Assembly: GCA_030550275.1 (NCBI GenBank)
Contig: JAUQPR010000003.1
Location: forward strand, 69,571 to 133,570
Length of the DNA: 64,000 nt
Direction: 5' to 3'
Source of the DNA: Bacteroidota bacterium
GTDB taxonomy: Bacteria > Bacteroidota > Ignavibacteria > Kapaibacteriales > HRBIN21
The notes under the pieces are model-generated. The model was given only the letters and a program-made list of their open reading frames with translations. It was not told the origin of the DNA and did no database searches. Made by a program: the position numbers and the translations under genes. How positions within the stretch are numbered: the first letter of the stretch is position 1; every line of letters begins with the position of its first letter. Shown here piece by piece: positions 6,205 through 35,560 of the stretch.

Positions 6205-7098
6205 CTACAGCCCCGCCTCGCTCCGGCGATACGCCAGGGCACCCGGGAAATGTACCAGTTGCAGCCGCGCGTCCATCCCGGTCAAGGTCTCCGTGCCGCC
6301 GACGAAGAGATATCCTCCCGGCACCAGGGCATCCACCAAGGACTGAACCACACGGCGCCGCACGTCCGGGGCAAAGTAGAGCAGCACATTGCGGCACAGG
6401 ATTACGCCCATCGGCGCCATCTGATGGACCGCATCGGTATTGACCAGATTCAGCACGCCGAAGCGCACCCGCTGCCGAAGCTCTGGAATCACCTCCAGCT
6501 CCGGACCGTAGCGCACGACGTAGGGCTCGTACTCGGCGGGGATCCGCACCGTTGCCGCCGGATAGCGCCCACGCTGTGCCTGTGTAATGGCATCGGTGCT
6601 AACGTCCGTGCCCCAGAGCTCGAGCTGCTCTGAGAGCATCCCGTACCGGTGGAGCACCATTGCCAGCGAATAGGGCTCCTCGCCTGCTGCACAGCCGGCA
6701 CTCCAGAGGCGCAGCGGTAGTCCACTGCGCTGCAGTTCCGGCACAATCGTTCGCGCGATCGCTTCGAAGTGCTCCGGGGTGCGGAAGAAGGCGCTCTCCA
6801 AGACCACAATCGCGTTGAGCATCTCCTGCTGCTCGCGCAGCGCTGCTGCGTCGGTGCCGGTGACGTAGCGCAGGTACTCCTCAAAGCGCTGCAGCCCCAG
6901 CGCCCGCAGGCGGCGCGCCAACCGCGCCTTGAGGAAGTACTGCCGGTTGTCGGCAATCCACACGCCGCTGAGCTGGTAGATAAACTGCCGCAGCTGCAAA
7001 AACGTGCTCTGCCCCAGCGGGGGCTCCTCCTTCGCTGCTTCAGCAAAGGGGACGAAGGCTTCCGGAGGCGTGAATCGAAGCATCGCCCATACCTGCAT
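6205..7098 (-). CDS. cheR: Chemotaxis protein methyltransferase CheR (SAM-dependent)
   Basis: CheR N-terminal helical domain (LRQFIYQLSGVWIADNRQYFLKARLARRLRALGLQRFEEYL) and methyltransferase core (LRLWSAGCAAGEEPYSLAMVL). Alternative start at M6 (7083). Stop is 1 bp from the ahcY stop. Confidence 0.8.
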   Translation of the reverse strand: MQVWAMLRFTPPEAFVPFAEAAKEEPPLGQSTFLQLRQFIYQLSGVWIADNRQYFLKARLARRLRALGLQRFEEYLRYVTGTDAAALREQQEMLNAIVVLESAFFRTPEHFEAIARTIVPELQRSGLPLRLWSAGCAAGEEPYSLAMVLHRYGMLSEQLELWGTDVSTDAITQAQRGRYPAATVRIPAEYEPYVVRYGPELEVIPELRQRVRFGVLNLVNTDAVHQMAPMGVILCRNVLLYFAPDVRRRVVQSLVDALVPGGYLFVGGTETLTGMDARLQLVHFPGALAYRRSEAGL

Positions 7099-7107
7099 TG
7101 CCGTGCC

Positions 7108-8004
7108 CTACTGCGCTGTGGGTTCACCCTCGGAAGTATCGGCGTCCGCCAGAGATTCTAAAACGATCCGCATGCCATCGCTGGAGAAGCGCACCCCGAC
7201 AAGGTCCGAGGGCACCTGGTAGACGTTGCCCCGAATGGCAATGATGGTCTCGGCGGGGACCAGCTCGCGCACCTCGATGCGTGCCCGGCGGCTCCCCACA
7301 CCGTAGTAGCGCTGTTCCAATTCGTGGAGCCACTGCTGAAGCCGCTCATGCTCCCTCTGCAGCGTCCGCAGCCGCTCCTCCGCCTGCGCATATCGCCGAA
7401 GCGCCATACACTCCTCCAGCTGTCCCTGCAGAGTACGGAGCTGCTGGCGCACCTGCTGAAGCTGCTGCTTCCAGTACTCCTGCTCGAGTTGCTGCACATA
7501 GGGCAGTCCAACCGAGAGCACGGGCGCGTGCGCCCCAAAGGCACCGCGAAGCTGCCACAAGCGAATCGTCTCGGCTGCCACGACCTGCCCACCGTAGAGC
7601 ACCGCCTGCTCCGCCTCGACCCGAAAGGCGTGCAACACGCTCATGCGGGCTTCCACCGCCAAGCGCAACGTCCCGCGCACCACCACCTGCGAATGGATTG
7701 CCGAATGCAGCTCCGCATCCCCAAGCGCAACGATGCTCGAGCGCGAGCACCAGCCCGCAATCCGCACATTGCCGTGCACCAGAAGCTGGCAGTTGAGAAC
7801 GTCGCCGTCGCAGACGAGATCGCCCTCAACTTCGGCAGCAAGGTTCTCCAGCGAGGTCTCCACGTGCAGCTCCCCCGAGTGGAGCACCCCAAAGGCGTGC
7901 GCGGCATCCCCGGAGGGTTGGGGCTCCTCCTGGAGAACCTCCGCGCGGAGATGCTTCCACAGCAGCGCCTGCAAGCGCCGAGCAAGTTCAGAGGGGAGTT
8001 CCAT
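7108..8004 (-). CDS. DUF342 / FapA-like beta-helical protein with C-terminal coiled coil
   Basis: Repetitive beta-helix-like segment (EVEGDLVCDGDVLNCQLLVHGNVRIAG...VVVRGTLRLAVEA) followed by a Q/L/R-rich coiled coil. The start abuts the regulator stop (8004/8005). Family assignment is by resemblance only. Confidence 0.4.
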   Translation of the reverse strand: MELPSELARRLQALLWKHLRAEVLQEEPQPSGDAAHAFGVLHSGELHVETSLENLAAEVEGDLVCDGDVLNCQLLVHGNVRIAGWCSRSSIVALGDAELHSAIHSQVVVRGTLRLAVEARMSVLHAFRVEAEQAVLYGGQVVAAETIRLWQLRGAFGAHAPVLSVGLPYVQQLEQEYWKQQLQQVRQQLRTLQGQLEECMALRRYAQAEERLRTLQREHERLQQWLHELEQRYYGVGSRRARIEVRELVPAETIIAIRGNVYQVPSDLVGVRFSSDGMRIVLESLADADTSEGEPTAQ

Positions 8005-9471
8005 CTACCGAGGTCGGAATTCCGACGGTTTGATGCCGTACTGCTTCAGCTTGTACTGGAAGGTCTGCCGAGAGAGCTGCAACAGTTGCGCTGCGCGCGA
8101 GACATTCCCCTGCGTCAGCGCAAGGGTTTGGCGGAAGAGGTCGCTCACCACCGCGTGGTATGGTGCTCCCTCCTCCGATAGGCAGAGCAGATGCTGCCCT
8201 GGGGGTAGCCGCAGCATCGCCAGCGTTGGCAACGCTGCTCCCTTCCGTGGGGAGTCCGCCTCTTCGGCACGCGCCCGAAGGAAGCTCAAGCTCTCGTGGG
8301 TGATGACCTCACCCTGTTCGAGCAACACCGCCCGTTCGATCGCATTGCGCAGCTCCCGGACATTCCCCCGCCACGGGTACGACAGCAGCAGCGTGACCGC
8401 CTCCGGCGTAAACCCTGTGATGCGCTTGTTGAAGCGGCGATTGAACTCGTTGACAAACGCGGTCGCCAGGGGTAGGATATCCTCCGGGCGCTCCCGCAAC
8501 GGCGGAATGTGGATGACAGCAACGTTGAGCCGGTAGTAGAGGTCCTCTCGGAACTTCCCCTCGCGCACCATCTGCTCCAGGTCGCGGTTGGTGGCTGCGA
8601 TGACTCGGACGTCAACGTGCACCTCCTCGCGCCCGCCCAATCGGTAGAAGCTGCGCTCCTGCAGCACTCGCAGCAGCTTGACCTGCAGCTCCAGCGGCAG
8701 CTCTGAGATCTCATCCAGGAACAGCGTCCCGCGGTCTGCCTGCTCGAACTTGCCCGGGTGGAGTTTTTCAAAGGCTCCGGTGAAGGCACCGCGCTCGTAG
8801 CCGAAGAGCTCGCTTTCGGCAAGTTCACGCGGGATTGCGCCACAGTTGATCACCACAAAGGGTCCGGAAGCGCGCGGGGAGTTCCGGTGGATGAAGCGCG
8901 CAAACAGCTCCTTGCCCGTGCCCGTCTCGCCCGTGATGAGCACCGTCGTATCCACAGGAGCGAAGAGCTTCGCCTGGCTGAGCGCCGAACGGAGGCTCTC
9001 CGAGACGGCAACGATATCGTAGGGATGCTCCAGGCGGAGCTGCTCCTCCAGCAGTTGAGCGTGGCGGCGCAGATCGTAGTTGCGCAGCGCGCGCTCCAGG
9101 ATCAGCTCCAACTGCTCCAGGTCTATGGGCTTGACGATGAAATCCTCCGCCCCCAGCTTCATCGCCCGCACCGCCATTTTGACGTCGGAGAAGGCGGTGA
9201 TGACCACCACAGGGGCTTTGAAGCCCTCTGTGCGGAGCTGCTCGAGCACATCCAAGCCGTTGCGCTCCCCCAGGAAGATGTCCAGCAGCACCAAGTCCGG
9301 GCGCAGCCGAGGCAGCTCCGCCAGCGCCGTCAAGGCATCCGGAATCCAGTAGACCCGGCGATAGCGCAGCTGGAGGTAGTTCTCCAGGGAGGCGCCCACG
9401 GTAGGGTCGTCCTCGATGATGAGAATCGTGTAGTTAGCCACGCCTGTCTGCGCAAGGGTCTCCGGCGGCAT
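8005..9471 (-). CDS. Sigma-54-dependent two-component response regulator (NtrC/FlrC family)
   Basis: ORF 8005..9663 trimmed to ATG 9471-9469 ([10 protein letters not shown].. then ILIIEDDP receiver). AAA+ sigma-54 activator motifs are present: [37 protein letters not shown]-terminal HTH ([26 protein letters not shown]). Confidence 0.85.
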
Positions 9472-10525
9472 CTTCGTTGCCTGCGATCGGCAGTCGGACA
9501 ATACACCTGGTGCCAAGACCGGGGGTGCTCTGGATGAGCAACTGCCCGCGGTGTTGTGCAATGATACGGCGAGCAATCGGAAGTCCCAGCCCCGTGCCGT
9601 TTGCCTTGCGCGTGAAGAAGGGCTCGAATATGCGCTCCAACTCCTCCGGGGCAATCCCCACACCGTTATCCTCGATGGTGATGACGACCATCGGGGGCTC
9701 CTCTGCCGTATCCAGCTCCGTGTGCAAGCGGATGGTGCCGCGCTCAGGGATGGCGTCGGCAGCGTTCGTCAGCAAGTTGACAATCGCCTGCTGCAACTGC
9801 CGAGCATCGGCGTAGATGGGCGGAAGCTCCGGAGCATAGTCCCGCTGGAGCTGAATGCTCTTGCGGTAGAACAGCGTCTGCAGCAACTGAATTGCTTGCT
9901 CCAACAGCTCGTGGACATCCTGGCGGCAGATACACTGTCCGGAACTGCGGGCAAAGGAGAGCGTGGAATCTACCAGCTCCCCAATCCGGCGTGCTCCGGT
10001 CAATGCCAATTCCGCCGCGGTGCGCTCTGGGGAATTCTCCGGCAGAGCTTGCCGGAGAAGCTGCAAATTGAGCTGGATAGCCGACAGCGGGTTGCGAATC
10101 TCGTGCACAATCCCGGCAAGGAGCTGCCCCAGCAGCGCGAGTTTGTCCGTGAGCACCAGCCGCTCAGCAATGAGCTGTGCATCGGTCTCCTCCAGCAGAG
10201 TTGCCCAGAGGTAGTGCTGCTGCTCATGGGCAAAGAGCCGTGCCCGTACCTCAAGTGTCGCGGTGGCGCCGTTGGGTAAGCCGATATGGAGCTCCGTGCG
10301 CACCGCGCTGGTGGGCTCGCGTTGGAGCAATCGGTACACTCGGCGGAACTCCGGCAGGGCAGCATGCTGCAACTCCTCCGGCGTAAGCTGCAGTAGCTCT
10401 GCGGCGCGCTCGGAGTACTCCACCACACGCCACTGCTGCGTCTCCAACACCAGCCAACCATGCACTGCATTGCGCAGCAGGGCACGGTACCACTCGGCTA
10501 CCCGAAGCGTTGCAGGCGGTGTCAT
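9434..10525 (-). CDS. PAS-domain sensor histidine kinase
   Basis: ORF 9434..11236 trimmed to ATG 10525-10523, which forms an ATGA overlap with the DUF58 stop. N-terminal PAS-like region; H-box LAGIVHEIRNPLSAI; HATPase motifs IEDNGVGIAPEELERIFEPFFT and GTGLGLPIARRI. Confidence 0.8.
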   Translation of the reverse strand: MTPPATLRVAEWYRALLRNAVHGWLVLETQQWRVVEYSERAAELLQLTPEELQHAALPEFRRVYRLLQREPTSAVRTELHIGLPNGATATLEVRARLFAHEQQHYLWATLLEETDAQLIAERLVLTDKLALLGQLLAGIVHEIRNPLSAIQLNLQLLRQALPENSPERTAAELALTGARRIGELVDSTLSFARSSGQCICRQDVHELLEQAIQLLQTLFYRKSIQLQRDYAPELPPIYADARQLQQAIVNLLTNAADAIPERGTIRLHTELDTAEEPPMVVITIEDNGVGIAPEELERIFEPFFTRKANGTGLGLPIARRIIAQHRGQLLIQSTPGLGTRCIVRLPIAGNEDAAGDPCADRRG

Positions 10526-11436
10526 TGCTGCATTCGCCGGCGCTTGGACAGATACTGCAGCAGCGCCCGATCGAAGGGCGTCTCGGTGGTCAAGAGAGCG
10601 AAATCCGCCCCGTGCTCTGCACAGCCGTACCGCAGCATCCGCTGATGCTCCGCGACCGCCTCCTGGTATGCCCGACGGATGAAGTAGGGGTGCGTTGCCA
10701 GGCGTTCGCCGGTCTCCACATCGCGGAACTCTGCAGCACTGTCGTAGGCGAAGGAGAGCTCCACCGGATCGAGCACCTGCAGGAGGATTACCTCGTGATG
10801 CTGTCCGCGGAGGCGCCGCACCGCGCGCAGCAGTGGCTCCACAGGCTCGAGGAGATCGCCGATGAGCACCACCAGGCTCCGCCGCCGCAGCCGCTCGGCA
10901 ACCATCTCCAACGCACCCGCACTCTGCGTCTGCCCACTGGGGCGATGCTGCTCCAATGCCCGCACAAGCTCGCCAAAGTAGGAGAACCGGGCGCTGGGAG
11001 GGCGATAGAGCCGAGGCTCTGCGTCGTAGAGCAGAAGCCCAACAGCATCCTTCTGCCGCAGCAGCAGATACCCCAGCGCTGCCGTCAGGACGGCAGCATA
11101 GTCCCATTTTGCCCACACCCCCTGTCCCTGGAATCCCATCGAGGCGCTGCCATCGAGCACCAGCATCACACGCACGTTGGTCTCCTCCTCGAACTGCTTG
11201 ACGTAGAAGCGCTCCGTGCGTGCGTACACGCGCCAATCAATCAGGCGCGGCTCATCCCCGGGTTGGTACTGGCGATGCTCGGCGAACTCAACACTGTAGC
11301 CGTGAAACGGCGACCGATGCAGCCCAACCAGAAAGCCCTCCACTACCGCCCGGGCCCGCAGCTCCAGCGATTGGAGCCGTGCCAGCACCTCCGGTCGCAA
11401 CTGCTCTCGCCACGCTGCGTCCTGCACCAGTGCCAT
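10522..11436 (-). CDS. DUF58 domain protein (vWA-like; usually partnered with MoxR ATPases)
   Basis: DUF58 signature HGYSVEFAEHRQYQPGDEPRLIDWRVYARTERFYVKQFEEE plus vWA-like MLVLDGSASMGF. No MoxR gene is adjacent. Confidence 0.7.
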   Translation of the reverse strand: MALVQDAAWREQLRPEVLARLQSLELRARAVVEGFLVGLHRSPFHGYSVEFAEHRQYQPGDEPRLIDWRVYARTERFYVKQFEEETNVRVMLVLDGSASMGFQGQGVWAKWDYAAVLTAALGYLLLRQKDAVGLLLYDAEPRLYRPPSARFSYFGELVRALEQHRPSGQTQSAGALEMVAERLRRRSLVVLIGDLLEPVEPLLRAVRRLRGQHHEVILLQVLDPVELSFAYDSAAEFRDVETGERLATHPYFIRRAYQEAVAEHQRMLRYGCAEHGADFALLTTETPFDRALLQYLSKRRRMQQ

Positions 11437-11461
11437 CGCCTCAGACCCTCAAACACACCCC

Positions 11462-12667
11462 CTACACCGGCTCCCGGGGCGGCTGCAGCTCCCCAAGGAA
11501 GGGCGTCACATCCTGGAACAGCCCGCGCGTGGACTCCTCATGGATGTAGCGCACGACCGCCTCCAAGGAGCCCGTCTCCCGCCACACGCGGAGCTGCCGG
11601 TCCGCCCCCGTGCCCATCTCCAGGATTTCGTGGATGTACTCGATCTCCTTGCGCGTGCCCAGCTCATCGACGACATCGTCCACAAACTCCAGCAACTCCC
11701 GAATTAGCATGCGTGCCGGGAACTCGCGCTGCTTGCCAAAGTCGATGAGCTTGCCATCAATGCCGTAGCGCACCGCGCGCCATTTGTTCTCCATGATGAG
11801 CGAGCGCCGGTAGACACGGAAGCTCATGTTCTTCTGGTAGAGCGAAAACAGCTTCGCCGCGATTGCCTGGCACAGCGCCGCAATCGCCACCGTCTCATCA
11901 ATGCGCATAGGGAGGTCGCAGATGCGTATCTCCAGGGTCGGGAAGAACGGATGCGGACGAATGTCCCACCAAATCTTCTTGCCGTTGTCAATGCAGCCGG
12001 TGCGGATGAGCAAGCGGACGTAGTTTTCAAACTCCGCCCAACTGCTGAAGAAGTCCGGTAGCGCCGTCCGCGGGAAGCGCTCAAAGAGCTTGGAGCGGTA
12101 GGATTTGAGCCCGGTGTTCATGCCCATCCAGAAGGGCGAATTGGTCGAGAGCGCCAGCACGTGCGGCAGGAAGTAGCGCATCACGTTCATGAGCTGGATC
12201 TGCGTCTCGCGGTTCTCAATACCGATGTGGATGTGCAAGCCAAAGATGAGGAGCGAGCGCGCCAGGATCTGCATGTCCTCCACAATGCCCAGGTAGCGCT
12301 CATCGGGGTAGATCTCCTGCTCCTGCCAGCGGGCAAAGGGATGGGTGCTGGCGGCAGCAATGAGCAGCCCGTTCTGCCGCGCCAGATGCGCCACGATGGA
12401 GCGGATCTTCGTCAGCTCAAAGCGCACCTCCTGAATGGTGCGGCACACGCCCGTACCAATCTCCACAATCGAGGCATGGAGCTCGGGCTTGACATGCTCG
12501 TGCAACAACGTGCGTCCCTGTGAAAGCAGCTCCATCCCGATGTGCGAGCGCAGGTCGAGCGTGTGCGGGTCCAAGACCATGTACTCCTCCTCCACCCCGA
12601 TGGTGAAGCTGGGGCGTTCGTACGGGTCGTACTCCTCGCGATAGGGCACCACCTCTTCCGGACCCAT
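11462..12667 (-). CDS. ybdK: Carboxylate-amine ligase, YbdK / glutamate-cysteine ligase family 2
   Basis: N-terminus FTIGVEEEYMVLDPHTLDL and motifs GLHIHIGIENRE, LALSTNSPFW, IWWDIRPHP match the GCS2/YbdK family. 25-bp gap to the DUF58 start. Confidence 0.8.
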   Translation of the reverse strand: MGPEEVVPYREEYDPYERPSFTIGVEEEYMVLDPHTLDLRSHIGMELLSQGRTLLHEHVKPELHASIVEIGTGVCRTIQEVRFELTKIRSIVAHLARQNGLLIAAASTHPFARWQEQEIYPDERYLGIVEDMQILARSLLIFGLHIHIGIENRETQIQLMNVMRYFLPHVLALSTNSPFWMGMNTGLKSYRSKLFERFPRTALPDFFSSWAEFENYVRLLIRTGCIDNGKKIWWDIRPHPFFPTLEIRICDLPMRIDETVAIAALCQAIAAKLFSLYQKNMSFRVYRRSLIMENKWRAVRYGIDGKLIDFGKQREFPARMLIRELLEFVDDVVDELGTRKEIEYIHEILEMGTGADRQLRVWRETGSLEAVVRYIHEESTRGLFQDVTPFLGELQPPREPV

Positions 12668-12754
12668 GGTGCTTGCCTACGGCTGTGGGCACATTCCGGC
12701 GCGCTCAGACGTCCTTTCCCCACAAAAGTATGCACTTCCCCGTAGATAGCCACA

Positions 12755-14525: not shown

Positions 14526-15620
14526 ATGACCCAGGTGCGGCTGTGCGGGTTGAGTAAACGCTTCCCACCCGACCGAGTCGCCCTGCACGAGGTGTGGCTA
14601 ACGGTGGAGCCCGGAGAGTTCCTCACCATCGTCGGCGCTTCCGGCAGTGGCAAGAGCACCTTGCTGCGCCTCATTGCTGGCTTGGAATTCCCCAGCAGCG
14701 GCGAGATCTACTTCAACACTGAGCGCGTCACCGAGCTACCGCCGCAGCAGCGCGACGTGGGCATGGTCTTCCAGAACTACGCTCTCTACCCGCATCTGAC
14801 GGTGTTCGAGAACCTCGCCTTCCCGCTGCGCATCCGCCGATGGCGACGCCATGCAATCGCCGAACGCGTCCGCCAAATCGCAGCACTGCTGGGGCTGGAG
14901 GCGGTGTTGGACCGCTATCCTCGGGAGCTCTCTGGAGGGCAGCGTCAGCGTGTTGCCCTGGGGCGCGCGCTGGTGCGCTCCCCCCGCGTCTTCCTCTTCG
15001 ATGAGCCGCTCTCCAATGTGGATGCCCCCCTGCGCGCACAGATGCGCGCGGATTTGCTCTCCCTTCAACGCCAGCTCGGCATTACCGCGCTCTACGTCAC
15101 CCATGACCAGCTCGAAGCGCTCTCGCTGGGCACCCGTGTCGCAGTCCTCTCCGAAGGGCGCCTGCTCCAGGTTGCCCCACCGGAGGAGCTCTACTACTTC
15201 CCCAACAGCCTCACCGTTGCCCGCTTCATTGGTTCCCCGCCGATGAACCTTCTCTCCGGCGTCGTGCAGCAAGGACAGCTCCTGCTGCGCGGTGGGGAAG
15301 CAGCGGTACCCTTGCCGCTTCCGCTGCCGGAGGGCTCGCAGTGGACCTTGGGCATCCGCGCAGAGCTGCTCACCCTGGGGAACACACCGGAGAGCGTTCC
15401 AATAGGCAACGCCATCGTCAAGAGCGTTGAGTACGCTGGGCACGAGACGCTCGTCGCCCTTGAGCATCCGGCTGCGGAGGGAAGCCTCTTCGTACGGCTC
15501 TCGCCCCCGCTGCGCCCTCCATCGTACGGGGAGACTGTCGCGCTGGCGTTGCGCCCGGGTCCGCTCTGTCTGTTCGACCCAGGCAGTGGGCAGCGCCGCT
15601 ACCCTATAGACGCACGGTGA
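14526..15620 (+). CDS. ABC transporter ATP-binding protein, MalK/UgpC/MsiK type (no permease or binding-protein genes adjacent)
   Basis: Walker A GASGSGKST, Q-loop, signature LSGGQRQRVALGRAL, Walker B VFLFDEPLSNVD, and a C-terminal TOBE-like regulatory domain. Confidence 0.8.
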   Translation: MTQVRLCGLSKRFPPDRVALHEVWLTVEPGEFLTIVGASGSGKSTLLRLIAGLEFPSSGEIYFNTERVTELPPQQRDVGMVFQNYALYPHLTVFENLAFPLRIRRWRRHAIAERVRQIAALLGLEAVLDRYPRELSGGQRQRVALGRALVRSPRVFLFDEPLSNVDAPLRAQMRADLLSLQRQLGITALYVTHDQLEALSLGTRVAVLSEGRLLQVAPPEELYYFPNSLTVARFIGSPPMNLLSGVVQQGQLLLRGGEAAVPLPLPLPEGSQWTLGIRAELLTLGNTPESVPIGNAIVKSVEYAGHETLVALEHPAAEGSLFVRLSPPLRPPSYGETVALALRPGPLCLFDPGSGQRRYPIDAR

Positions 15621-24373: not shown

Positions 24374-25224
24374 CGCTCCAGCAGCTCATCGGCTCCAGCA
24401 CCCACCTGGTCGCCAAACGTGTGGTGAGCCAGTTGAGTCCGGAGCTGAGCCTCTTCTGGCGCAGCCTCATTGCCGCCCTCAGCAGCATGGCGTGGCTGCT
24501 GTACGAGAACCACCGAACCGCTCTGCTGCACCGGCTCCGCCTCCGTCAGGTGGTGCTGCTGCTTGTGCTGGGGCTGCTCGCCGTGCCGCTCAACCAGTGG
24601 TGCTTTCTGGCTGGGGTGCGGCTATCCACCCCTGCCAATGCCTCCCTGATGTACGCACTGACGCCGGTCTGGACCCTGCTGTTGAGCAGCGCACTGCACC
24701 AGGAGCGCCTGACTGCGCTGAAGCTCACCGGAGTGCTGCTGGCAGTAGGGGGTGTGGTGTTGGTGCTCTGGGAGGAAGCACCGTTCCCCAGCAGCTCCAC
24801 CACGCTCGGGAATTGGCTCCTGCTGCTGGCAAGCTGGGCATGGGCACTCTACACCGTTCTCAGCCAGCGTGTTGCCATGCAGTTGGGCGCTCTGAAGACC
24901 ACGGCGCTCAGTATGGTGCTGGGCTGGATGCTTTACCTCCCGCTGTGGGCTGCGCTGGGTGCGGAGTTAGGGCTGGAGCTGCTCTCCCCCTCACTGGTGC
25001 TGGAGCTGCTCTACATGGGCGTGGTGACATCGGGCATCGGCTACCTGCTATGGGTAGCAGTCCTGCAGCGGCTGGAAGCCAGCAAGGTTGCGGTCTTCGC
25101 TACACTCCAGCCGGTGCTCACCACTCTGGCTGCCATCCCGCTCTTCGGGTTTGTCCCCTCGTTCCCCTTCCTGCTGGGCGGAATGGCTATCCTTGCGGGG
25201 ATGCTTCTGACCCAACTGGGCTGA
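24316..25224 (+). CDS. EamA/DMT-family transporter (10 TMS)
   Basis: Two EamA-like halves of hydrophobic helices (LLVLGLLAVPLNQWCFLAGVRLSTPANASLMYALTPVWTLLLS ...). The start is uncertain (ATG 24316, or GTG 24352, which overlaps the GT4 stop less). Confidence 0.65.
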   Translation: MLGSSTLKTRGAVGDYLLLTLQQLIGSSTHLVAKRVVSQLSPELSLFWRSLIAALSSMAWLLYENHRTALLHRLRLRQVVLLLVLGLLAVPLNQWCFLAGVRLSTPANASLMYALTPVWTLLLSSALHQERLTALKLTGVLLAVGGVVLVLWEEAPFPSSSTTLGNWLLLLASWAWALYTVLSQRVAMQLGALKTTALSMVLGWMLYLPLWAALGAELGLELLSPSLVLELLYMGVVTSGIGYLLWVAVLQRLEASKVAVFATLQPVLTTLAAIPLFGFVPSFPFLLGGMAILAGMLLTQLG

Positions 25225-25291
25225 CCGCGCGCCCTCGGCTTCGATTGGGCGGCGTTCTGTATTTTGCGCCACTGACAATGCAAGCGCATCC

Positions 25292-28200
25292 ATGCTACGT
25301 CGGCTGGGGATTGCCATCGCCGCGGTTGTGAGCGCTACGGCAGCGGGAACTGGCTTCATTGAGAACCAAGGGCAGGTGCGCGACCGCTTCGGGCAGCTTC
25401 GCCCGGACATCCTCTTCGTTGCTGAACTGCCGGGGATGGAGCTCTTCGTCCACACCCGAGGCATCAGCTACGTGTTCACCGTGGTGGAGCTCTCCGAGGA
25501 GCTTCCCCCTGAACACCGCTGGCGCCGCCTCAGCGCTCGCCGCTACCGACTCGACCTGGAGTGGCTCTCCGCAGAGCCCTTCTTCCGGGTGCGTGCATCG
25601 GGAGCGCATCCCATGCTGCGCCACTACTACCTGCCGGGACGCACGGCGTTGAACGTTGCCGCCTACCAGGAGGTACAGCTTGAGGAGCTCTACCCGGGCG
25701 TGACGCTTCGGCTGCGGCTGGGCAGCGAAGGGCTCAAGTACGACCTGCTGTGCCGCCGTGCCGAAGATCTCGCCCGCGTGCGCTTCCGCTACGTCGGCGC
25801 GCAGCAGCTCTCCCTGCAGCCCGATGGGAGCTTGCTGGTGCATACCCCGCTGGGCACGGTGCGCGAGCTTCCCCCGGTGGCATTCCAGCTCAATCGAACC
25901 CTTGCAGCCGCCTATCAGCTCCACGGCGATACTGTGAGCTTCCGCGCTGCCGAAGCGCTTCCCCACCTGCCGCTGGTCTTTGATCCCGGTGTGGCGTGGT
26001 CCACCTTCTATGGTGGAAGCCGGCTGGAGGACTTCACCGCCGTCGCCGCAGACGCTGCCGGGAATATCTACCTGGCGGGCTGGAGTGTGAGCACAGACTT
26101 CCCCGTGGTGAACGCCTTCCAACCCAATTTGCGCGACACCCTGGCAACGGACATCGTCGTAGTCAAGCTCTCCGCAGCGGGCTCTCCAATCTGGGCAACC
26201 TATTACGGCGGCGATAGCAGCGATGCCGCCTACGGCATCGCCTGCGATGGCTCAGGGGAGGTGGTGGTTGTGGGCACCACCACGAGCCCGAACTTCCCCG
26301 TCCAAAACGCCTTCCAGAGCACGCTCTCGGGCTACTCCGATGCCGTCATCGTGCGCTTCAACAGCTCCGGGCAGCGCCTGTGGGCAACCTACTACGGCGG
26401 CAGCGGTGAGGAGACCGCCTACGGTGTGGCATTCCACCGCAGTGGGATCTTCGTCGGCGGCACCACGAGCAGCACGAACTTCCCCGTGCTCAACGCGCTC
26501 CAGAGCGTCCATGGAGGTGGCACCACAGATGGCTTCGTGCTGAAGTTCTCCGCTGCCGGGCAGCGCCTGTGGGCAACCTACTACGGCGGCAGCGGTGAGG
26601 AGGACCTCCGAGGAATCGCCGCTGACAGCCTCGGTGCCGTTCTCGCTGTTGGCATGACCACGAGCACGAACTTCCCCGTGCAGAACGCACTGCAACCGAC
26701 CTACGGTGGCGGACTCTCGGATGCCTTCGTGCTCAAGCTCTCCGGCTCTGGGCAGCGCCTGTGGGCAACCTACTACGGCGGCAATCGGCTGGACTTCGGC
26801 TACGGCGTCGCCACCGACGTGCGCAACATGGTCTATATCTGCGGCAGCTCCCTCAGCGACTCCATCCCTATGCGCTACGCCTTCCAGTCGCGCCGAGTTG
26901 CTGCACTGGAGGCATTCATCGCAGCGCTGGACACCGTCGGAGGTCTGCTCTGGGGCACCTTCTACGGCGGCAACGGTGTGGATGAAGCTCGCGGCATCGC
27001 CACCACGCCGCAGCGCCGCATCCTTGTGGTCGGCTCCACCAACAGCTCGAACTTCCCGCTCAACCAGCCGCTCCAGAACAGCCATGCCGGCAATGGGGAT
27101 GCCTTTGTGGCAGCCTTCAACTACGTGGGCGTCCAACTGTGGTCGAGCTACTACGGCGGCTCCAGCGCCGACATCTTCTACCGCGTCGCCGCCGATAGCG
27201 CAGGGAACTTCACCGCGGCGGGCAACTCCACAAGCTCGGACTTCCCCCTGCAGAACGCCTTCCAAAGCACGCTCCGCGGCGGGATGGATGGCGTTGCCGT
27301 GCGGTTCGAATGGGAGAGCATCCGCTGCTGGCTCCTGCGCCCCGGTCCGCTGTGCCCTGGCGACACCATCAGCATTGGATTCGAGGCACGGGGCTACTTC
27401 TTCCCGGACAACGTCTTCACCGCCGTGCTCTCAGATTCCACCGGCAGCTTCAACACCTCCACGCTCATTGGCTCCCTTGCCGGGCAGAGCAGCGGAGTCA
27501 TCCTCGGGCGCATTCCGGATACGGTCTCTCCGAGCAAGCGCTACCGGATTCGCGTCCTGGGTTCGCGCCCTGCAACCATCGGGAGCCCCAGCGATAGCTT
27601 CACGATTCTGCCCCGCCCAACGCCGCCGGTGATCACCGTGGAGCCGGATACTGTGCTCTGCCCCGGCGACAGCGCTATCCTGCGCATCGAACCGCAGGAG
27701 ATGGCAACCTACCGCTGGCTGCTCAACGGCAATCCCATCGGGAGTGACTCACCGCAACTTGTCGCCCGACAAGCCGGACGCTACAGCGTCCTTGTGCGCA
27801 CCCCGTGCGGGGAGGTGCGCTCCCAGCGCGATATTGTGCTCACCAGCGCCAATAGACCCGCCATCCCACGAATCGAGGTCCTGGGAGCACGCCGCTTCTG
27901 CCGAGGAGATTCCGCTATCCTCCGCACCGCCAACCAGGGTGGGGAGACCTCCTACGAATGGCTCCGCAACGGCGTCCTCATAGGGCAGAATGCGCCGGTC
28001 CTGACCGTCTCCCAAAGCGGCAGCTACACCGTGGTGGTGGCGAACCTCTGCGGTCGCGTTGCTTCGCCGGATACGGTACACATCCTCGTGGATGAACCGC
28101 TGGCGCCTCCGGAGTTGGTTGCCGAGGGTGCCACGCGCTTCTGCCAAGGCGATTCCGTCGTGCTCCGTACCCGCGCCGACAGCGCCATCATGGAATACCG

Positions 28201-29962
28201 CTGGTACCGCGATGGAACGCTCTTCCTGCGTAACGAGCGTGCCTGGCGCATCGCCGTGCGGCAATCGGGATGGTACAGCGTGGAGATCGTCAACACCTGC
28301 GGCGCTGTCCGCTCCGATAGCCTCCGCATCGAGGTCATCCCTCGACCGCTCCCACCGCGCATCACCGTCGAAGGGGGAACGGTGCTGTGCGCTGGCGATA
28401 GCACCCGACTGCGCACGGCAGAGCAACCGGGCGCAACGTACCAGTGGTACCGCGACGGTCGAGCCGTTGGACCCAATGCCCCTGTCTACGTCGTCCGGGA
28501 ATCGGGCACCTACACGGTCGAGGTCCGCACCGAATGCGGCGCTGTGCGCTCGCCCGATAGTGTTGTCATCCGCGTGTTGGATGCTCCACCAACTCCGCCC
28601 CTGTATGCCAGCGGCGCACCCCGACTGTGCGAGGGAGATAGCCTTGAGCTCTGGACAGAGCCCTTCACCGGTGCCCAGTACCAATGGACCCGCAACGGAG
28701 CTCCCGTGGGGGCTGATACGAACGTGCTCGTTGTGCGCCAAGCCGGCGTGTATCGAGTTCGCCTGCTGACGCCTTGTGGGGAAGCTGTCTCCGATTCCCT
28801 CGTCGTCGAGGTGCTGAGTCCACCCCCGGCGCCGGTAGTGCAGCCGCTGGGTCCACTCCGGCTGTGTGAAGGGGATTCGCTGCAATTGGTGCTCCGAGAG
28901 CGGCTCTCGGGCATCCGCTACACCTGGTATCGGGATAGCCTCCCACTGCCGTACACCGGGGATACGCTCACCGTCAGCACAGCTGCGACGTACTGGGTCC
29001 AAGCATCCAACGAATGCGGGGAAGCAGCCTCCGAGCGCCTCACCGTCGTCGTGCTCCCACGCCCGCCGAAGCCGGAGATCGCCCAGCGCGGCGATACCCT
29101 GGTCTCCAGCTCCCCTGTGGGGAACCAATGGCTGGATAGCACCGGAGCTCCCATTCCTGGGGCAACGGAGCAGTACTTCGTGCCACCCGGCAGTGGGCGC
29201 TACCGCGTGCGCGTGACCATTGATGGCTGCGCTTCGGAATCCGACCCGTACGACTACGTAGCGCGCGTCCAGCCGGTTGCAGCAGGGCTTCGGCTGCCAC
29301 AGGGACGGCGCTATACTCCGGGAGAGCGTATCGAGCTGGAGCTGCTGCTCCTGCCCGCCGGGCAAGCGCTCCCGCCGGGGAGACTGAGTGCACGCCTGCG
29401 TTACTGGGCGCGAGTTCTGGAGCCGCTCGCTCCGACGCCCTTGGGCAGCCTCCAGCAGGGTTGGCGAACTCTGCCGGTGGAGCTGCGAATTCCTGCACTC
29501 CCTGCCGGGACGGCTCAGCTCCGGCTCGCAACGGGGCTGCTCTTCCGTGTCCTCTTGGGCGATAGGGACTATACCCCGCTTCTGCTGGACAGCCTGCAGT
29601 TCCATGCCGAACGCACCTTCCCCTTCGTCGCCCTGCCTCCGGACACCCTGTGGGTGGAGATCTGCCGCGAGGGTGGAGAACGCCTCTTTGACCCAGAAAC
29701 GCCAGCGCTGCAGCTGCGTATCCTGCCGAATCCCGCTGCATCCGCGCCGACACTGCACTACGCTATCCCCGAGCCAGGGGACATCCGCATCCGCATGTGG
29801 AGCCTCTACGGCACGGAGGTAGCACGGCTCGTCGAGGGCTTCCACCAGCCTGGTCACTACGAGCTCCTCCTGGACACCGAGCGGCTCCCTGCGGGCGTGT
29901 ACGTGGTGGCGTTGCAAACCCCGACCCAAGAGGTGCGAACACTCCTGTACTACGTGCCATGA
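25292..29962 (+). CDS. Giant exported T9SS cargo protein: signal peptide, about 10 SBBP beta-propeller repeats, 9 tandem Ig-like (I-set-like) repeats, T9SS type-A C-terminal sorting domain
   Basis: Signal MLRRLGIAIAAVVSATAAG. The repeat YYGGSG..D.A.GIA.D..G...VVG.T.S.NFPVQNAFQ occurs about 10 times (aa 240-640). Nine ~80-aa repeats carry the Ig signature P.P.I...G...LC.GDS..L......YQW.R.G.......SG.Y.V.V.T.CG (aa 770-1290). The C-terminus LRILPNPAASAPTLHYA..IRIRMWSLYGTEVARL...LPAGVYVVALQTP is a Por_Secre_tail-type CTD. Confidence 0.85.
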   Translation: MLRRLGIAIAAVVSATAAGTGFIENQGQVRDRFGQLRPDILFVAELPGMELFVHTRGISYVFTVVELSEELPPEHRWRRLSARRYRLDLEWLSAEPFFRVRASGAHPMLRHYYLPGRTALNVAAYQEVQLEELYPGVTLRLRLGSEGLKYDLLCRRAEDLARVRFRYVGAQQLSLQPDGSLLVHTPLGTVRELPPVAFQLNRTLAAAYQLHGDTVSFRAAEALPHLPLVFDPGVAWSTFYGGSRLEDFTAVAADAAGNIYLAGWSVSTDFPVVNAFQPNLRDTLATDIVVVKLSAAGSPIWATYYGGDSSDAAYGIACDGSGEVVVVGTTTSPNFPVQNAFQSTLSGYSDAVIVRFNSSGQRLWATYYGGSGEETAYGVAFHRSGIFVGGTTSSTNFPVLNALQSVHGGGTTDGFVLKFSAAGQRLWATYYGGSGEEDLRGIAADSLGAVLAVGMTTSTNFPVQNALQPTYGGGLSDAFVLKLSGSGQRLWATYYGGNRLDFGYGVATDVRNMVYICGSSLSDSIPMRYAFQSRRVAALEAFIAALDTVGGLLWGTFYGGNGVDEARGIATTPQRRILVVGSTNSSNFPLNQPLQNSHAGNGDAFVAAFNYVGVQLWSSYYGGSSADIFYRVAADSAGNFTAAGNSTSSDFPLQNAFQSTLRGGMDGVAVRFEWESIRCWLLRPGPLCPGDTISIGFEARGYFFPDNVFTAVLSDSTGSFNTSTLIGSLAGQSSGVILGRIPDTVSPSKRYRIRVLGSRPATIGSPSDSFTILPRPTPPVITVEPDTVLCPGDSAILRIEPQEMATYRWLLNGNPIGSDSPQLVARQAGRYSVLVRTPCGEVRSQRDIVLTSANRPAIPRIEVLGARRFCRGDSAILRTANQGGETSYEWLRNGVLIGQNAPVLTVSQSGSYTVVVANLCGRVASPDTVHILVDEPLAPPELVAEGATRFCQGDSVVLRTRADSAIMEYRWYRDGTLFLRNERAWRIAVRQSGWYSVEIVNTCGAVRSDSLRIEVIPRPLPPRITVEGGTVLCAGDSTRLRTAEQPGATYQWYRDGRAVGPNAPVYVVRESGTYTVEVRTECGAVRSPDSVVIRVLDAPPTPPLYASGAPRLCEGDSLELWTEPFTGAQYQWTRNGAPVGADTNVLVVRQAGVYRVRLLTPCGEAVSDSLVVEVLSPPPAPVVQPLGPLRLCEGDSLQLVLRERLSGIRYTWYRDSLPLPYTGDTLTVSTAATYWVQASNECGEAASERLTVVVLPRPPKPEIAQRGDTLVSSSPVGNQWLDSTGAPIPGATEQYFVPPGSGRYRVRVTIDGCASESDPYDYVARVQPVAAGLRLPQGRRYTPGERIELELLLLPAGQALPPGRLSARLRYWARVLEPLAPTPLGSLQQGWRTLPVELRIPALPAGTAQLRLATGLLFRVLLGDRDYTPLLLDSLQFHAERTFPFVALPPDTLWVEICREGGERLFDPETPALQLRILPNPAASAPTLHYAIPEPGDIRIRMWSLYGTEVARLVEGFHQPGHYELLLDTERLPAGVYVVALQTPTQEVRTLLYYVP

Positions 29963-30741
29963 CCCACCTGGGACGGTTCATCGGACTGCTCTGCTGCGGC
30001 ATCTCCACAGCGCTGGCGCAGTATGCTGCCGGCGTGAGTATCGGCGCTGGGGTGAACCTGCATACGGCGGACTTCCGCACTGTATCGCCGGACATCCCCA
30101 ACTGCTGCCCTGGCTTTGAAGCCGGAAGCGGAGCGGCATGGAGCCTGGGTCTGACCTACGATGGGCTCCCGCTTGCTCCCCGCCTTCGGCTCCTGGGCGA
30201 GCTGAACTACCTCCGGCGGGATGCACGGCTGACCCAGCGCGAGGCAATTGTGTTCAGTTCCGACGATGGGCGCGCCGTTGCTGGCACAGTGCAGCACGAG
30301 CTTCAGACCCAGCTGGCATCGCTGGGGATAACACTGCTGCTGGGGTATTCGCCGCTTGGCTCCGTGCCGAGCTTGCAGCTGCGAGCCGGCATCCACACGG
30401 GGTGGACGGTGCTGGCAGCGTTCTCTCAGCAGGAGCTCCTCGTGGACCCACCGTACGGGCGCTTTTTGGACACGGGCACGCGCTCGCGCAACCACTACAG
30501 CGGCAAGCTTCCCAACGCCAGTTCTGTATCGGTCCTTGCCACCGTAGGAGCGCGCTACCTGCTTCCCATCAGCGACCTCTTCAGCCTCATGCCGACGGTA
30601 TCGGGATGGTTTGGGCTCACTCCCGTCGTCTCCGGCATTGCCTGGCGGGCTCATGCCCTGCACTTCAGCATGGGGATTGTTTACTCGCCGCTGCCGGAGG
30701 CACCCTCACCGCTCCGTCCCGGCTCGCCGGAACGCCCCTGA
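29959..30741 (+). CDS. Small outer-membrane beta-barrel protein (PorT / OMP_b-brl_2-like porin family)
   Basis: ATG at 29959 overlaps the upstream TGA (ATGA). Signal MTHLGRFIGLLCCGISTALAQ. 260 aa with alternating hydrophobic beta-strand pattern (VSIGAGVNLHTADF, LGLTYDGL, LGITLLLGYSP). Confidence 0.55.
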   Translation: MTHLGRFIGLLCCGISTALAQYAAGVSIGAGVNLHTADFRTVSPDIPNCCPGFEAGSGAAWSLGLTYDGLPLAPRLRLLGELNYLRRDARLTQREAIVFSSDDGRAVAGTVQHELQTQLASLGITLLLGYSPLGSVPSLQLRAGIHTGWTVLAAFSQQELLVDPPYGRFLDTGTRSRNHYSGKLPNASSVSVLATVGARYLLPISDLFSLMPTVSGWFGLTPVVSGIAWRAHALHFSMGIVYSPLPEAPSPLRPGSPERP

Positions 30742-30743
30742 GC

Positions 30744-32051
30744 ATGCGCGCAAGCGCTGCAGCGGCAATCGCCCTCTATGGGCTCACCCTCTTTGCCCAG
30801 GAGCCCCCGGTGCTCCTGCGCGATCTGCGCATCTACGGTGGCACGGACGAGACCGCTCCCCCAATCCTCCAGCTCCCCTCGGAGGAGGCGCCATTGGAGG
30901 CGCCGGGCTACCCGTTTGTAACCCTGGAGCTCGACGTTGAAAGCCCGCTTCCGCCGGCGCTTCTGGCTCGGTTGGTCCACTGCCGTCCAGACTGGCAGGA
31001 GAGCCAAAATGTCTTCCTCGCCTTCGGTCTTGCGGGCACAACGCTCTTCTCCTGGGAGAGCGCTCCTGCCCCTTCGAGCTTCTACACCTACCGAGGGCGG
31101 CTTCGACTGCCCAACGCACAGCTCTCGGTGCCGTATGCGGGCAATTGGAAGGTGCTCCTCTACGACGCCCGAGCCCCAACGACCCCATTGGCGGAAGCTC
31201 GCTTCTTCGCTGTCAAGCCCGCAGCGGAGTGCCGTGTAACGGTGTACGCGGACCTCTATACGGCATCCCCCGGCGTTAGCCCTGCTGCGGTGACTGTGGA
31301 AGCCTGGGTCCGCCCCCTTTCGGCTCGCCGTACCGACCGCCGCCTCCATACGGTGGTCTTCTACCGCAACCACCGCTGGTGCGAGCCGTACGTGGTCACC
31401 CAGGATGCCCGAATCGCCGACACGCGCCAGCTCTACAGCACGGGCTACCGCAGCAGTATCTCTGGGATGCTCCCGGCAGGGAAGCTCTTCCGGGTGGAGC
31501 AGCTCCCGGCGCAGAACGAGTACCGAGTGCTGGACCTGAGCAATCCCGCACAGTTCCCTCCCGGTGCTGCTCAGCCCATCCGGCTCCCCATGGCGGATCT
31601 GCGCCGCCGGGGCAACTTCTGGGAGTTCGCCGATGATGGTGCCCTCCGCTCCGCCCATCTTCCTCCGCATCTGCAGGACTACATTCCCGTGGAGTTCATC
31701 CTCGACCCCGAAGGCGCCCCACCCAGCGCGCAGGAGCTCTTCCTGGTGGGCTCCTTCAACCACTGGTGTCCTTCGGCACAGTGGCAGCTTGCCTGGGATG
31801 AGCAGGAGGGCGTCTACCGGCTCCGACAGTTGCTGCGGCGCGGGCGCCACAACTACCTCTACGCCACCGGTCGGCTCAACGCCGACACACGCCAGGTCGA
31901 AGCGCTCGATTTCACCGAATGGGAGGGCAACACGACCGCTGCGCGGCACACCTTCTTTGCCTTCGTGTACTACCTGGAGCCCGATTTCGGCGGCTACGAT
32001 GCCCTCATCGCCGTCGGAGCCGCCAGTATCTACGGTCCGCTCCGCCGCTAA
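30744..32051 (+). CDS. Exported protein of unknown function (435 aa); DUF5103-like T9SS-associated protein is a low-confidence possibility
   Basis: ATG at 30744, 3 bp after the upstream stop. Signal MRASAAAAIALYGLTLFAQ. No motif I can assign confidently. The context (cargo then beta-barrel then this gene) suggests a secretion link. Confidence 0.4.
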   Translation: MRASAAAAIALYGLTLFAQEPPVLLRDLRIYGGTDETAPPILQLPSEEAPLEAPGYPFVTLELDVESPLPPALLARLVHCRPDWQESQNVFLAFGLAGTTLFSWESAPAPSSFYTYRGRLRLPNAQLSVPYAGNWKVLLYDARAPTTPLAEARFFAVKPAAECRVTVYADLYTASPGVSPAAVTVEAWVRPLSARRTDRRLHTVVFYRNHRWCEPYVVTQDARIADTRQLYSTGYRSSISGMLPAGKLFRVEQLPAQNEYRVLDLSNPAQFPPGAAQPIRLPMADLRRRGNFWEFADDGALRSAHLPPHLQDYIPVEFILDPEGAPPSAQELFLVGSFNHWCPSAQWQLAWDEQEGVYRLRQLLRRGRHNYLYATGRLNADTRQVEALDFTEWEGNTTAARHTFFAFVYYLEPDFGGYDALIAVGAASIYGPLRR

Positions 32052-33358: not shown

Positions 33359-33385
33359 TGTGCGTACCCGCAACTGGTGGAACAT

Positions 33386-34060
33386 TCATCGCCGACGAAC
33401 CTCCAGGACTGCCGAGAGCGGAACCTCAATTCCGCCAAGCCGGAGATAGGCGCCATCGGCAGCAAATCTGACCGCTTCCACAACACCTTCGACGAACGCG
33501 CCCAGCTCCTGTTCCCCACCCGTCTCCATCGTTGCCACGATCCGAATGCGGTACTCCCCTGCCGGGAGCCGATTCCCCGCCGCATCTGTGCCATCCCATT
33601 CAAACCACTGCTCTCCTGCCGATACCCCACGCCGCTCCACAGAGCGCAGCACCCGACCATCGGACGCCAGGACCTCCATCCGCACTGCTGCAGTGCCTTG
33701 GGGAACTTCGCAGCCCACCCGTACCGAACCCTGCACTCCCAGCAGGAGCTTTCCAGTCTCTGCCCGCACTGTACTGCCCAGCAACGCCGGTGCAGAAGCA
33801 CTCCCGATGCCCTCCATGAGCGCTGAGAGTTGCCCCACCTCCAGCTCCATCAACTGCCGCATGGAGAGGAGCTGCTCCAATTGCGAGAACACCGCCAGTT
33901 GGGCTGCCAGCTCCTGCCCGTCGTACGGGCGCACGGGGTTTTGGAGTCGGAGCTGCATGGTCAGCAGCTTCAGGAATGCATCCCTGCCCATCTCCGTGCG
34001 CTGGGGCTGGAGAGCCTTCGTCGAGAGCGATTGTGGTGCAATTGCATCAACCCTTGGCAT
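33386..34060 (-). CDS. flgD: Flagellar hook capping / assembly protein FlgD
   Basis: FlgD N-terminal motif DAFLKLLTMQLRLQNPVRPYDGQELAAQLAVFSQLEQ. C-terminal Ig-like (FLgD_ig) segment. Confidence 0.8.
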   Translation of the reverse strand: MPRVDAIAPQSLSTKALQPQRTEMGRDAFLKLLTMQLRLQNPVRPYDGQELAAQLAVFSQLEQLLSMRQLMELEVGQLSALMEGIGSASAPALLGSTVRAETGKLLLGVQGSVRVGCEVPQGTAAVRMEVLASDGRVLRSVERRGVSAGEQWFEWDGTDAAGNRLPAGEYRIRIVATMETGGEQELGAFVEGVVEAVRFAADGAYLRLGGIEVPLSAVLEVRRR

Positions 34061-35122: not shown

Positions 35123-35560
35123 TCACGGCTGTGGGGGAAGCCGACCGTGCCGTGCGTCGTTTTGAAGCTGCTTGAGCCAGAAGAGGTCGTGCGCCAAGTC
35201 CACCAGGTTTCGCACCGCGCCCTGTGTCATGAGCAGGTAGACCTCCTGGAAGCGCTGGCAAACCTCCTCCGGTGCCCACGGGAGAAGGCGCTCCAGGAGC
35301 TGCCGGAGCACCGCAACGCTTTCGGCAAAGCTCTCCTCGACGCTTCGGTACCCCTCTTGCCCTGGCGCAAGGCGCTTCCAGATTCGGTAGACCCGCCACA
35401 GCGAAGCCCCGGCGAAGATGATCTCGTTGGCAAACTCCGCTGCGTCATGCTGTGCTGCAAGCTCCAGAATCACCCCGAGGTCGCCAGGCTTGCGCAGGGA
35501 GTTGTTTGCATACGCCTGCAGGTACGCTACGACCGCTTCCGTGTCGGCAGAGAGCTTCAT
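35123..35560 (-). CDS. Hypothetical protein (145 aa) in the flagellar hook operon (position matches FliJ/YlxF-type accessory genes)
   Basis: Clean ORF starting 2 bp after the upstream lipoprotein stop. No recognisable motif. Confidence 0.4.
   Translation of the reverse strand: MKLSADTEAVVAYLQAYANNSLRKPGDLGVILELAAQHDAAEFANEIIFAGASLWRVYRIWKRLAPGQEGYRSVEESFAESVAVLRQLLERLLPWAPEEVCQRFQEVYLLMTQGAVRNLVDLAHDLFWLKQLQNDARHGRLPPQP

Follow-up and report, generated by a model that had tools for sequence, protein, structure and literature searches.

The six-gene operon and its products

This analysis concerns a 64-kb window, 64,000 nucleotides of contig JAUQPR010000003.1 with a G+C content of 64%, and in particular six open reading frames (ORFs) on its minus strand at positions 6205-12667. 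These encode a YbdK/GCS2 ligase, a DUF58 protein, a histidine kinase (HK), a sigma-54 response regulator (RR), a short FapA-like protein and CheR, and every neighbouring pair overlaps or is separated by at most 25 bp. A first-pass annotation of this DNA had described the six as a compact operon. The ORFs lie where it placed them, Pfam searches confirmed the DUF58, FapA/DUF342 (PF03961), CheR and Sigma54_activat domains that it predicted, and the tight packing is conserved in the clade of close relatives described below. In order of transcription the genes are:

11462-12667 (−): YbdK-family carboxylate-amine ligase (GCS2), the first gene of the operon; Pfam GCS2 1.5e-63
10522-11436 (−): DUF58 vWA-like protein; Pfam DUF58 1.1e-59 (201.7 bits), VWA_2 4.7e-10
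9434-10525 (−): soluble sensor histidine kinase with a PAS-like N-terminal domain, HisKA and HATPase_c; Pfam HisKA, HATPase_c
8005-9471, alternative GTG start at 9441 (−): NtrC-type sigma-54-dependent response regulator; Pfam Response_reg, Sigma54_activat, AAA_lid_14, HTH_8
7108-8004 (−): short FapA/DUF342-like protein, 298 aa; Pfam FapA 40.8 bits (cutoff 31)
6205-7098 (−): CheR-type protein-glutamate O-methyltransferase, the last gene; Pfam CheR_N 46.2 bits and CheR 152.1 bits, above cutoff

The junctions were read directly in the sequence and, with one exception, are as first described. A 25-bp gap separates ybdK from the DUF58 gene, the DUF58 and kinase genes share an ATGA overlap, the ATG of the FapA-like gene directly abuts the TAG stop of the regulator gene, and 9 bp lie between the FapA-like gene and cheR, whose stop codon is 1 bp from that of the convergent ahcY. 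The exception is the 38-bp overlap given for the kinase and regulator genes, which holds only if the regulator starts at the ATG at 9471. Starting at the GTG at 9441 reduces the overlap to 8 bp and is the better fit to the N-termini of regulator orthologues, whose alignments begin at window residue 8-13; in relatives the overlap is 4-7 bp. We found no terminator-like or sigma-70-like sites on the minus strand inside the operon, and Rfam and tRNA scans gave no matches within it.

The YbdK protein passes the curated NCBIfam equivalog NF010039 'carboxylate-amine ligase' (542.6 bits, cutoff 371). The DxSxS metal-ion-dependent adhesion site (MIDAS) motif of the DUF58 protein is intact, reading DGSAS in the translation, and this protein does occur without its usual partner, as had been remarked: there is no MoxR (AAA_3) ATPase in the clade loci or among the window ORFs scanned, where the sole AAA_3 match is sub-threshold and falls on RuvB. 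For the kinase, the designation as a PAS histidine kinase stands as far as HisKA and HATPase_c are concerned; the PAS domain is below the Pfam threshold in this protein (15 bits against 22.6) and is backed by an alignment to NCBIfam AtoS over residues 15-351 and by PAS matches in the orthologues. The top NCBIfam match of the kinase is to the C-terminal part of AtoS, at 232.9 bits and under the cutoff of 646. In the regulator, the GAFTGA motif, the Walker motifs and the receiver Asp (in LLDIFLG) can all be read from the sequence, and the nearest NCBIfam model is AtoC (436 bits, cutoff 714). The FapA-like protein consists of an N-terminal helix, a beta-solenoid, a coiled-coil hairpin and a C-terminal beta domain, the solenoid and hairpin also being present in the AlphaFold2 model, and a Pfam scan gave no match to FapA_N (PF20250). 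CheR reaches 136 bits against the E. coli-type NCBIfam equivalog, which has a cutoff of 435.

Motility genes elsewhere in the window are few. As the first-pass annotation had noted, fliK, flgD and flgE are present (32048-35075, with flgE 24 kb from the operon), and no gene for a methyl-accepting chemotaxis protein, cheA, cheB or cheW was found among the ORFs scanned.

The kinase/regulator pair heads a chemotaxis operon in many related lineages

The regulator has thousands of strong matches, which include a dense series of ~474-aa proteins from Kapabacteria and Ignavibacteria at 57-64% identity. Four outgroup loci (L numbers here and below denote individual loci) illustrate the context: TPR-HK-RR-HEAT-CheR-CheY-CheY-CheZ-CheA in L015, TPR-HK-RR-CheR in L017, RR-CheR in L016 and BatA-TPR-HK-RR-small protein in L014. 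In L014, L015 and L017 the kinase encoded ahead of the orthologous regulator shares 39-41% identity with that of the window.

For a wider census, metagenome contigs were scanned with an alignment of the receiver domain and their ORFs were labelled by BLASTP against reference proteins together with a FapA hidden Markov model. This returned 80 loci, which were not dereplicated, and the counts are approximate. The commonest architecture is TPR-HK-RR-HEAT-cheR-cheY-cheY-cheZ-cheA-cheB-small protein, in which the 371-aa gene after cheA was identified as cheB by Pfam. Sequence of 2.5 kb or more beyond the regulator is available for 54 loci, of which 34 have a same-strand cheR, 35 some che gene, 23 a HEAT gene and 8 a FapA-like gene; a kinase lies upstream of the regulator in 49 of 66 loci. 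The che or HEAT gene that comes next after the regulator mostly begins −20 to +30 bp from it, an operonic spacing. Regulator and che genes are linked in no fewer than five sequence lineages of the family: type A, the Metallophos-FapA and L094 types, the L099 type and the window clade. Judged by gene neighbourhood, the pair has a real link to motility, and this link is to chemotaxis genes and to FapA. When the flanks of these operons were checked for flagellar genes in the relatives, only housekeeping genes were found; in Ignavibacterium album the che genes lie within a 71-gene flagellar cluster (PMC3362086).

An alternative is that the pair has nothing to do with motility. It might instead regulate metabolism or the envelope in the manner of AtoSC or ZraSR, its proximity to che and FapA genes being a historical accident or a matter of shared expression. 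AtoS and AtoC are indeed the best NCBIfam similarities of the two proteins, about a third of the census loci have no che, FapA or HEAT neighbour, and the genes that flank the operons are housekeeping rather than flagellar ones. In the same direction, the small non-che gene hyp183 has a plausible sigma-54 promoter in front of it in L014 and L047, and BatA-type or DUF58 vWA proteins lie upstream in some lineages. Against it stand the recurrence of the linkage in separate lineages and the operonic spacing, and the AtoC similarity is under cutoff and generic for the family. There are also no ato genes nearby, and the window kinase, unlike AtoS, has no membrane-anchored N-terminal half. We regard a role outside motility as unlikely, if still deserving of attention.

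Synteny within the window clade does not single out the six genes

The FapA-like protein delimits the clade to which the window belongs. A word-indexed search found only eight homologues of it, and an exhaustive profile search of 1.84 billion representatives gave one strong cluster and one fragment. A genome scan identified the carriers as Kapabacteria-type metagenome-assembled genomes (bacterium HR21, Candidatus Kapaibacterium and 'Chlorobiota' or 'Bacteroidota' bacteria). The host lineage is a high-GC relative of Kapabacteria.

It is in this one Kapabacteria clade only that the six-gene order is complete, and there a block of ~20 kb of unrelated genes is equally syntenic, with genes for a TonB receptor, an ABC ATPase, DnaJ and a metallophosphatase on one side of the operon and for AhcY, MetK, an amidohydrolase, ClpX, ClpP and trigger factor on the other. 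Since the whole block is equally syntenic, synteny within the clade does not discriminate between a functional link and common descent. Identity to the window proteins ranges from 86-90% for GCS2, 73-76% for the regulator and 63-68% for DUF58 to 53-56% for the kinase, 53-62% for CheR and 48-51% for the FapA-like protein. In the census, GCS2 and DUF58 stand beside the pair in the window clade alone. The first-pass annotation had taken the six genes for one undescribed signalling module; their order is conserved across the clade, but YbdK and DUF58 join the pair only there and together with the entire ~20 kb block, and we therefore do not retain that reading. The same holds for its proposal that the convergent metK-ahcY genes serve the S-adenosylmethionine (SAM) requirement of CheR. 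Their adjacency is part of the syntenic block and absent from the outgroups, and so is no evidence of coupling.

No protein of the block is more conserved than the YbdK-type ligase, which is comparable to AhcY (85-89%) and above MetK (80-85%). This is unusually high conservation for an enzyme without a clear function.

FapA-like proteins in chemotaxis operons

The next tier of the FapA-like profile consists of other ~300-aa FapA-like proteins, several of which NCBI names as Kapabacteria. The short FapA-like genes of L018 and L019 sit in cheW-fapA-HEAT-cheR-cheY operons, with a TTTA-N15/16-(G/A)CCGATAA motif ~50 bp upstream of cheW. In L020, L090 and L091 the arrangement is Metallophos-RR-FapA, in which the regulator is orthologous and FapA comes directly after it, and in L099 and L100, where the HK-RR pair is more distantly related, the gene after it encodes a full-length FapA that has the FapA_N as well as the FapA domain. 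The association of the FapA-like gene with che genes is thus found twice over: in the window it adjoins cheR, and its distant short relatives are members of che operons that a sigma-28-like motif precedes. The FapA family is also co-conserved with a flagellar sigma-28 sub-module (PMC11607428). Together these observations uphold the earlier suggestion that the FapA-like protein is linked to motility.

The protein shares the Pfam FapA beta-solenoid and coiled coil with Vibrio vulnificus FapA and Borrelia BB0267. The role of FapA in Vibrio involves polar recruitment and EIIA-Glc control. Unlike full-length FapA, the window protein has only 298 residues, lacks FapA_N, is very divergent in score and belongs to a subfamily confined to the one Kapabacteria clade.

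Promoters and the comparison with flagellar sigma-54 systems

Three promoter-like sites on the minus strand are relevant to the operon and to the flagellar genes of the window:

12720-12733 (−): candidate Bacteroidota-type housekeeping −7 box, TAnnTTTG-like, GCATACTTTTGTGG, in the 87-bp divergent intergenic region upstream of ybdK
35116-35089 (−): predicted sigma-28-type site TTTAGTTTT-N12-GCCGATAA, upstream of fliK
7162-7136 (−): internal sigma-28-like site TTTA-N15-GCCGATAC, within the 3'-terminal part of the FapA-like gene and 38 nt short of the cheR start codon (ATG)

The core GTACTTT(C/T)GTG of the box upstream of ybdK is kept in seven of seven aligned clade loci, and by comparison with the known Bacteroidetes sigmaA consensus this box is a putative promoter element. 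The fliK site is a close match to the sigma-28/FliA consensus, has the form of the motif that precedes cheW in L018 and L019, and falls in the 47-bp gap between a 145-aa ORF (35123-35560) and the fliK ATG (35075), so that the predicted leader is very short. Besides the GCCGATAC site it is the only one in the window that pairs GCCGATAA (at most one mismatch) with a correctly spaced TTTA. The GCCGATAC site itself was considered as an internal sigma-28-type promoter and set aside; it is not conserved in six clade relatives and we therefore treat it as chance or strain-specific.

Sigma-54 sites gave a different result. Matches to TGGCAC-N5-TTGC with up to two mismatches are not enriched in the window (78 against 86 expected), and no such consensus lies upstream of fliK-flgD-flgE, the one flagellar operon of the window. 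The best site that appeared intergenic, at 41649, was rejected, as it lies inside the signal-peptide coding region of a lipoprotein gene. No sigma-54 site is conserved across the clade block, and none is consistently upstream of the TPR or HK gene in more than 50 loci.

The annotation had proposed that the pair is an analogue of FlrB/FlrC. The comparison has some merit, and the closest known systems are indeed the flagellar sigma-54 two-component systems. As in FlrB/FlrC of Vibrio, FleS/FleR of Pseudomonas and FlgS/FlgR of Campylobacter and Helicobacter, a soluble (PAS-)kinase is paired with a REC-AAA+-HTH sigma-54 activator in a flagellated organism, with some motility-related genes close by. 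What differs is the company that the pair keeps, which is not hook and basal-body genes. In the window its motility neighbours are the FapA-like gene and cheR only, and in relatives it heads a che operon (cheR, cheY, cheZ, cheA, cheB) in 34-35 of 54 loci with non-flagellar flanks. Nor does the regulator match a curated flagellar family, scoring 318 bits for FlgR and 338 for FlbD (cutoff 750 for each), both below AtoC; NCBIfam gave no FlgR, FlbD or NtrC equivalog match. With a sigma-28-type site where the proposal called for a sigma-54 promoter, sigma-54 control of the hook genes fails the sole test that is possible in the window. The part of the claim that stands is the neighbourhood link to motility genes.

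The same evidence weighs on the reading of the operon as one self-contained module. On that reading hook and basal-body genes are under the control of an FlrB/FlrC-like pair, the kinase or the DUF342 protein is a methylation substrate of CheR, YbdK and DUF58 belong to the machinery, and SAM comes from metK-ahcY. The overlapping, tight packing conserved throughout the clade, the match of the PAS-kinase and NtrC-type architecture to FlrBC, FleSR and FlgSR, and the presence of flagellar hook genes in the window all speak for it. It is at odds with the restriction of the YbdK, DUF58 and metK-ahcY adjacency to genomes in which the ~20 kb block is syntenic, with the promoter type at fliK-flgD-flgE and with the low FlgR and FlbD scores. 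Moreover, the CheR of relatives sits with CheY, CheZ, CheA and CheB, an ordinary set for methylation-dependent chemotaxis, and in one clade member, described below, two of the six genes have decayed while the other four persist. We consider such a module highly improbable.

The operon as a probable evolutionary mosaic

We favour, with a probability of roughly 0.6, the explanation that the six-gene operon is an evolutionary mosaic made up of a chemotaxis-linked kinase/regulator core, a cheR left over from a broken-up che operon, a FapA-like gene in place of the HEAT gene, and recruited ybdK and DUF58 genes. Its apparent unity is the compaction of three layers: the kinase/regulator pair, the retained FapA-like and cheR genes, and the clade-specific ybdK-DUF58 segment upstream. 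The family of the core pair is found, in most Ignavibacteria and Kapabacteria, at the start of the main chemotaxis operon (TPR-HK-RR-HEAT-cheR-cheY-cheY-cheZ-cheA-cheB). This operon would have been broken up in the clade of the window, leaving only the downstream cheR; the beta-solenoid/coiled-coil FapA-like protein would stand where the HEAT-repeat protein was, and ybdK and the DUF58 gene would have been recruited upstream under the apparent housekeeping-type promoter.

As for function, the kinase would detect a cytoplasmic cue and phosphorylate the regulator, which in turn would switch on genes related to motility or chemotaxis at other places in the genome through their sigma-54 promoters; given the sigma-28-type site, fliK-flgD-flgE would probably not be among its targets. 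CheR presumably methylates chemoreceptors as usual, the FapA-like protein may be a scaffold for assembling or positioning the flagellum or the receptor array, and YbdK and DUF58 would be co-transcribed passengers.

Several observations weigh against this explanation. No convincing sigma-54 promoter was found in the window or in the clade block. In the Kapabacteria genome GCA_025059875.1 (L011), the kinase and the FapA-like gene are pseudogenes (at 6837-7863 and 9349-10000), the former at 25% identity with several stops and the latter with stops and a remnant 'IIRGVAYYVPSGL'. GCS2, DUF58, the regulator and CheR are intact in this locus, where the regulator keeps its receiver Asp. The six genes, including the HK-RR-FapA-CheR four, are accordingly not an indivisible unit. 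In the census, 17 of the 54 loci keep the HK-RR pair without a che, FapA or HEAT neighbour, and the pair is thus not obligatorily tied to chemotaxis. The main che-linked group of regulators was recovered in 26 of 30 bootstraps and the window-clade regulator lies outside it, joining it in 13 of 30, so that the latter could be a paralogue rather than an orthologue.

CheR raises the same difficulty more sharply. In a neighbour-joining tree the CheR of the window clade joined the che-operon CheRs of Ignavibacteria and Kapabacteria in none of 100 bootstraps, which makes 'remnant' an inference from position. The window protein is 28-35% identical to the che-operon CheRs, which are 42-60% identical among themselves, and beyond the clade its next-best matches are at 33-41% among the matches listed, several of them labelled Deltaproteobacteria. 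The window cheR is perhaps a replacement, or else a second paralogue. In the low-GC Kapabacteria Candidatus Thermonerobacter, two CheR genes (COG1352) are listed, one of them on the scaffold of cheA at the spacing expected of the conserved operon, and Kapabacteria metagenome-assembled genomes are reported to have dispersed flagellar genes and a complete CheABWRYZ set (PMC6338057). Fast evolution in a high-GC lineage, replacement in situ and paralogy are possible accounts of the divergence of CheR and the regulator. The first-pass annotation had called this CheR an orphan. That is apt in so far as no cheA, cheB, cheW or chemoreceptor gene was found among the window ORFs scanned, but the most fitting view, going by position, is that the gene is left over from a che operon that was broken up.

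Relation to chemosensory control of transcription

Where an NtrC-type regulator is tied to che genes, the nearest known case is CrdS/CrdA with Che3 of Myxococcus xanthus. CrdS/CrdA is an HK/NtrC-type pair regulated cooperatively by Che3, which lacks CheY and controls development (PMC3147164). By analogy, che proteins might feed the sigma-54 regulator through crosstalk from CheA or CheY beside its cognate kinase, so that the che genes control transcription as well as, or instead of, swimming. The precedent itself and the presence of regulator and che genes in one operon in most relatives favour this analogy, and the two have in common an HK/NtrC-type pair tied to a che cluster that includes CheR, here by gene position. 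The conserved Ignavibacteria/Kapabacteria operon, however, carries two CheY and CheZ, whereas Che3 has no CheY, and so has the look of a pathway directed at the motor. Of the che genes, cheR alone stands beside the regulator in the window clade, and hence CheA is not linked there. We judge a Che3-like arrangement quite improbable, and the locus cannot be shown to belong either to the flagellar sigma-54 two-component systems or to the CrdS/CrdA-Che3 type.

A bolder version of the mosaic explanation, which we put forward as speculation and think rather unlikely, is that the HK/sigma-54 pair is a master transcriptional switch of motility in flagellated Bacteroidota-related lineages, coupled physically or biochemically to the chemosensory array through a FapA-like or HEAT adaptor, and that the window operon is a stripped-down version of this coupling.

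We know of no experimental study of flagellar or chemotaxis regulation in Ignavibacteria or Kapabacteria. A sigma-54 two-component system that heads the che operon in many lineages, repeatedly beside a FapA-like gene, offers a candidate regulator and two candidate accessory proteins (FapA-like and HEAT-repeat). That pattern across Ignavibacteria and Kapabacteria, in which the system shares a transcript with the core chemotaxis genes, merits follow-up more than the six-gene operon does, and the main value of the window is corrective: tight packing and clade synteny made three unrelated layers resemble one new module.

Other genes of the related operons and of the window

Two protein families recur in the chemotaxis operons of the relatives:

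L015 11511-12821; L018 10908-12272; L019 2799-4187; 23 of 54 census loci: HEAT-repeat protein
L014 11511-12062; L017 12974-13564; many census loci, e.g. L038, L046, L051, L067: small acidic CxCG protein

The HEAT-repeat protein (~430-460 aa) is a regular member of the operon between the regulator, or the FapA-like gene, and cheR; we know of no described che accessory protein of this kind. The small acidic protein (~180-200 aa, with a C-terminal CxCG and no Pfam match) closes the che operon or directly follows a che-less regulator, and usually adjoins a convergent clpS. We considered this gene (hyp183/196) as a sigma-54 target, but good sites are present only in L014 (11457) and L047 (14812) and the idea does not hold generally.

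A BatA-type vWA protein precedes TPR-HK-RR in L014 (4344-6449) and also in L057, L058, L064 and L080. Two different vWA proteins are thus found beside one two-component system, BatA-type in several lineages and DUF58 in the window clade. With its intact MIDAS, and with BatA-type vWA and TPR genes before the orthologous HK-RR in some relatives, the arrangement recalls the MoxR-DUF58-BatA/B operons of the Bat aerotolerance type; it differs from them in that no MoxR was found in the 64-kb window and in that DUF58 is paired with YbdK, in the window clade only. Derivation of the DUF58 gene from a MoxR-Bat operon was considered and is unsupported, because neither MoxR nor DUF58 lies upstream of BatA in L014. 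In L017, an Ignavibacteria scaffold, the sequence between regulator and cheR (11560-11960) includes an assembly gap, seen as a run of N, with duplicated AT-rich repeat units around it.

Two further features of the window, both on the plus strand, may be recorded:

15514-15592 (+): ARAGORN call of a tRNA-Ala(GGC) inside the ABC ATPase gene
25211-32051 (+): gene for a 1583-aa surface protein, followed by one for a type IX secretion system plug-domain protein

The tRNA call was not confirmed by Rfam and is therefore probably a false positive. The surface protein contains DUF7948, SBBP beta-propeller repeats and Ig, PKD and CHU_C-associated Ig domains, and both it and the plug-domain gene converge on flgE.

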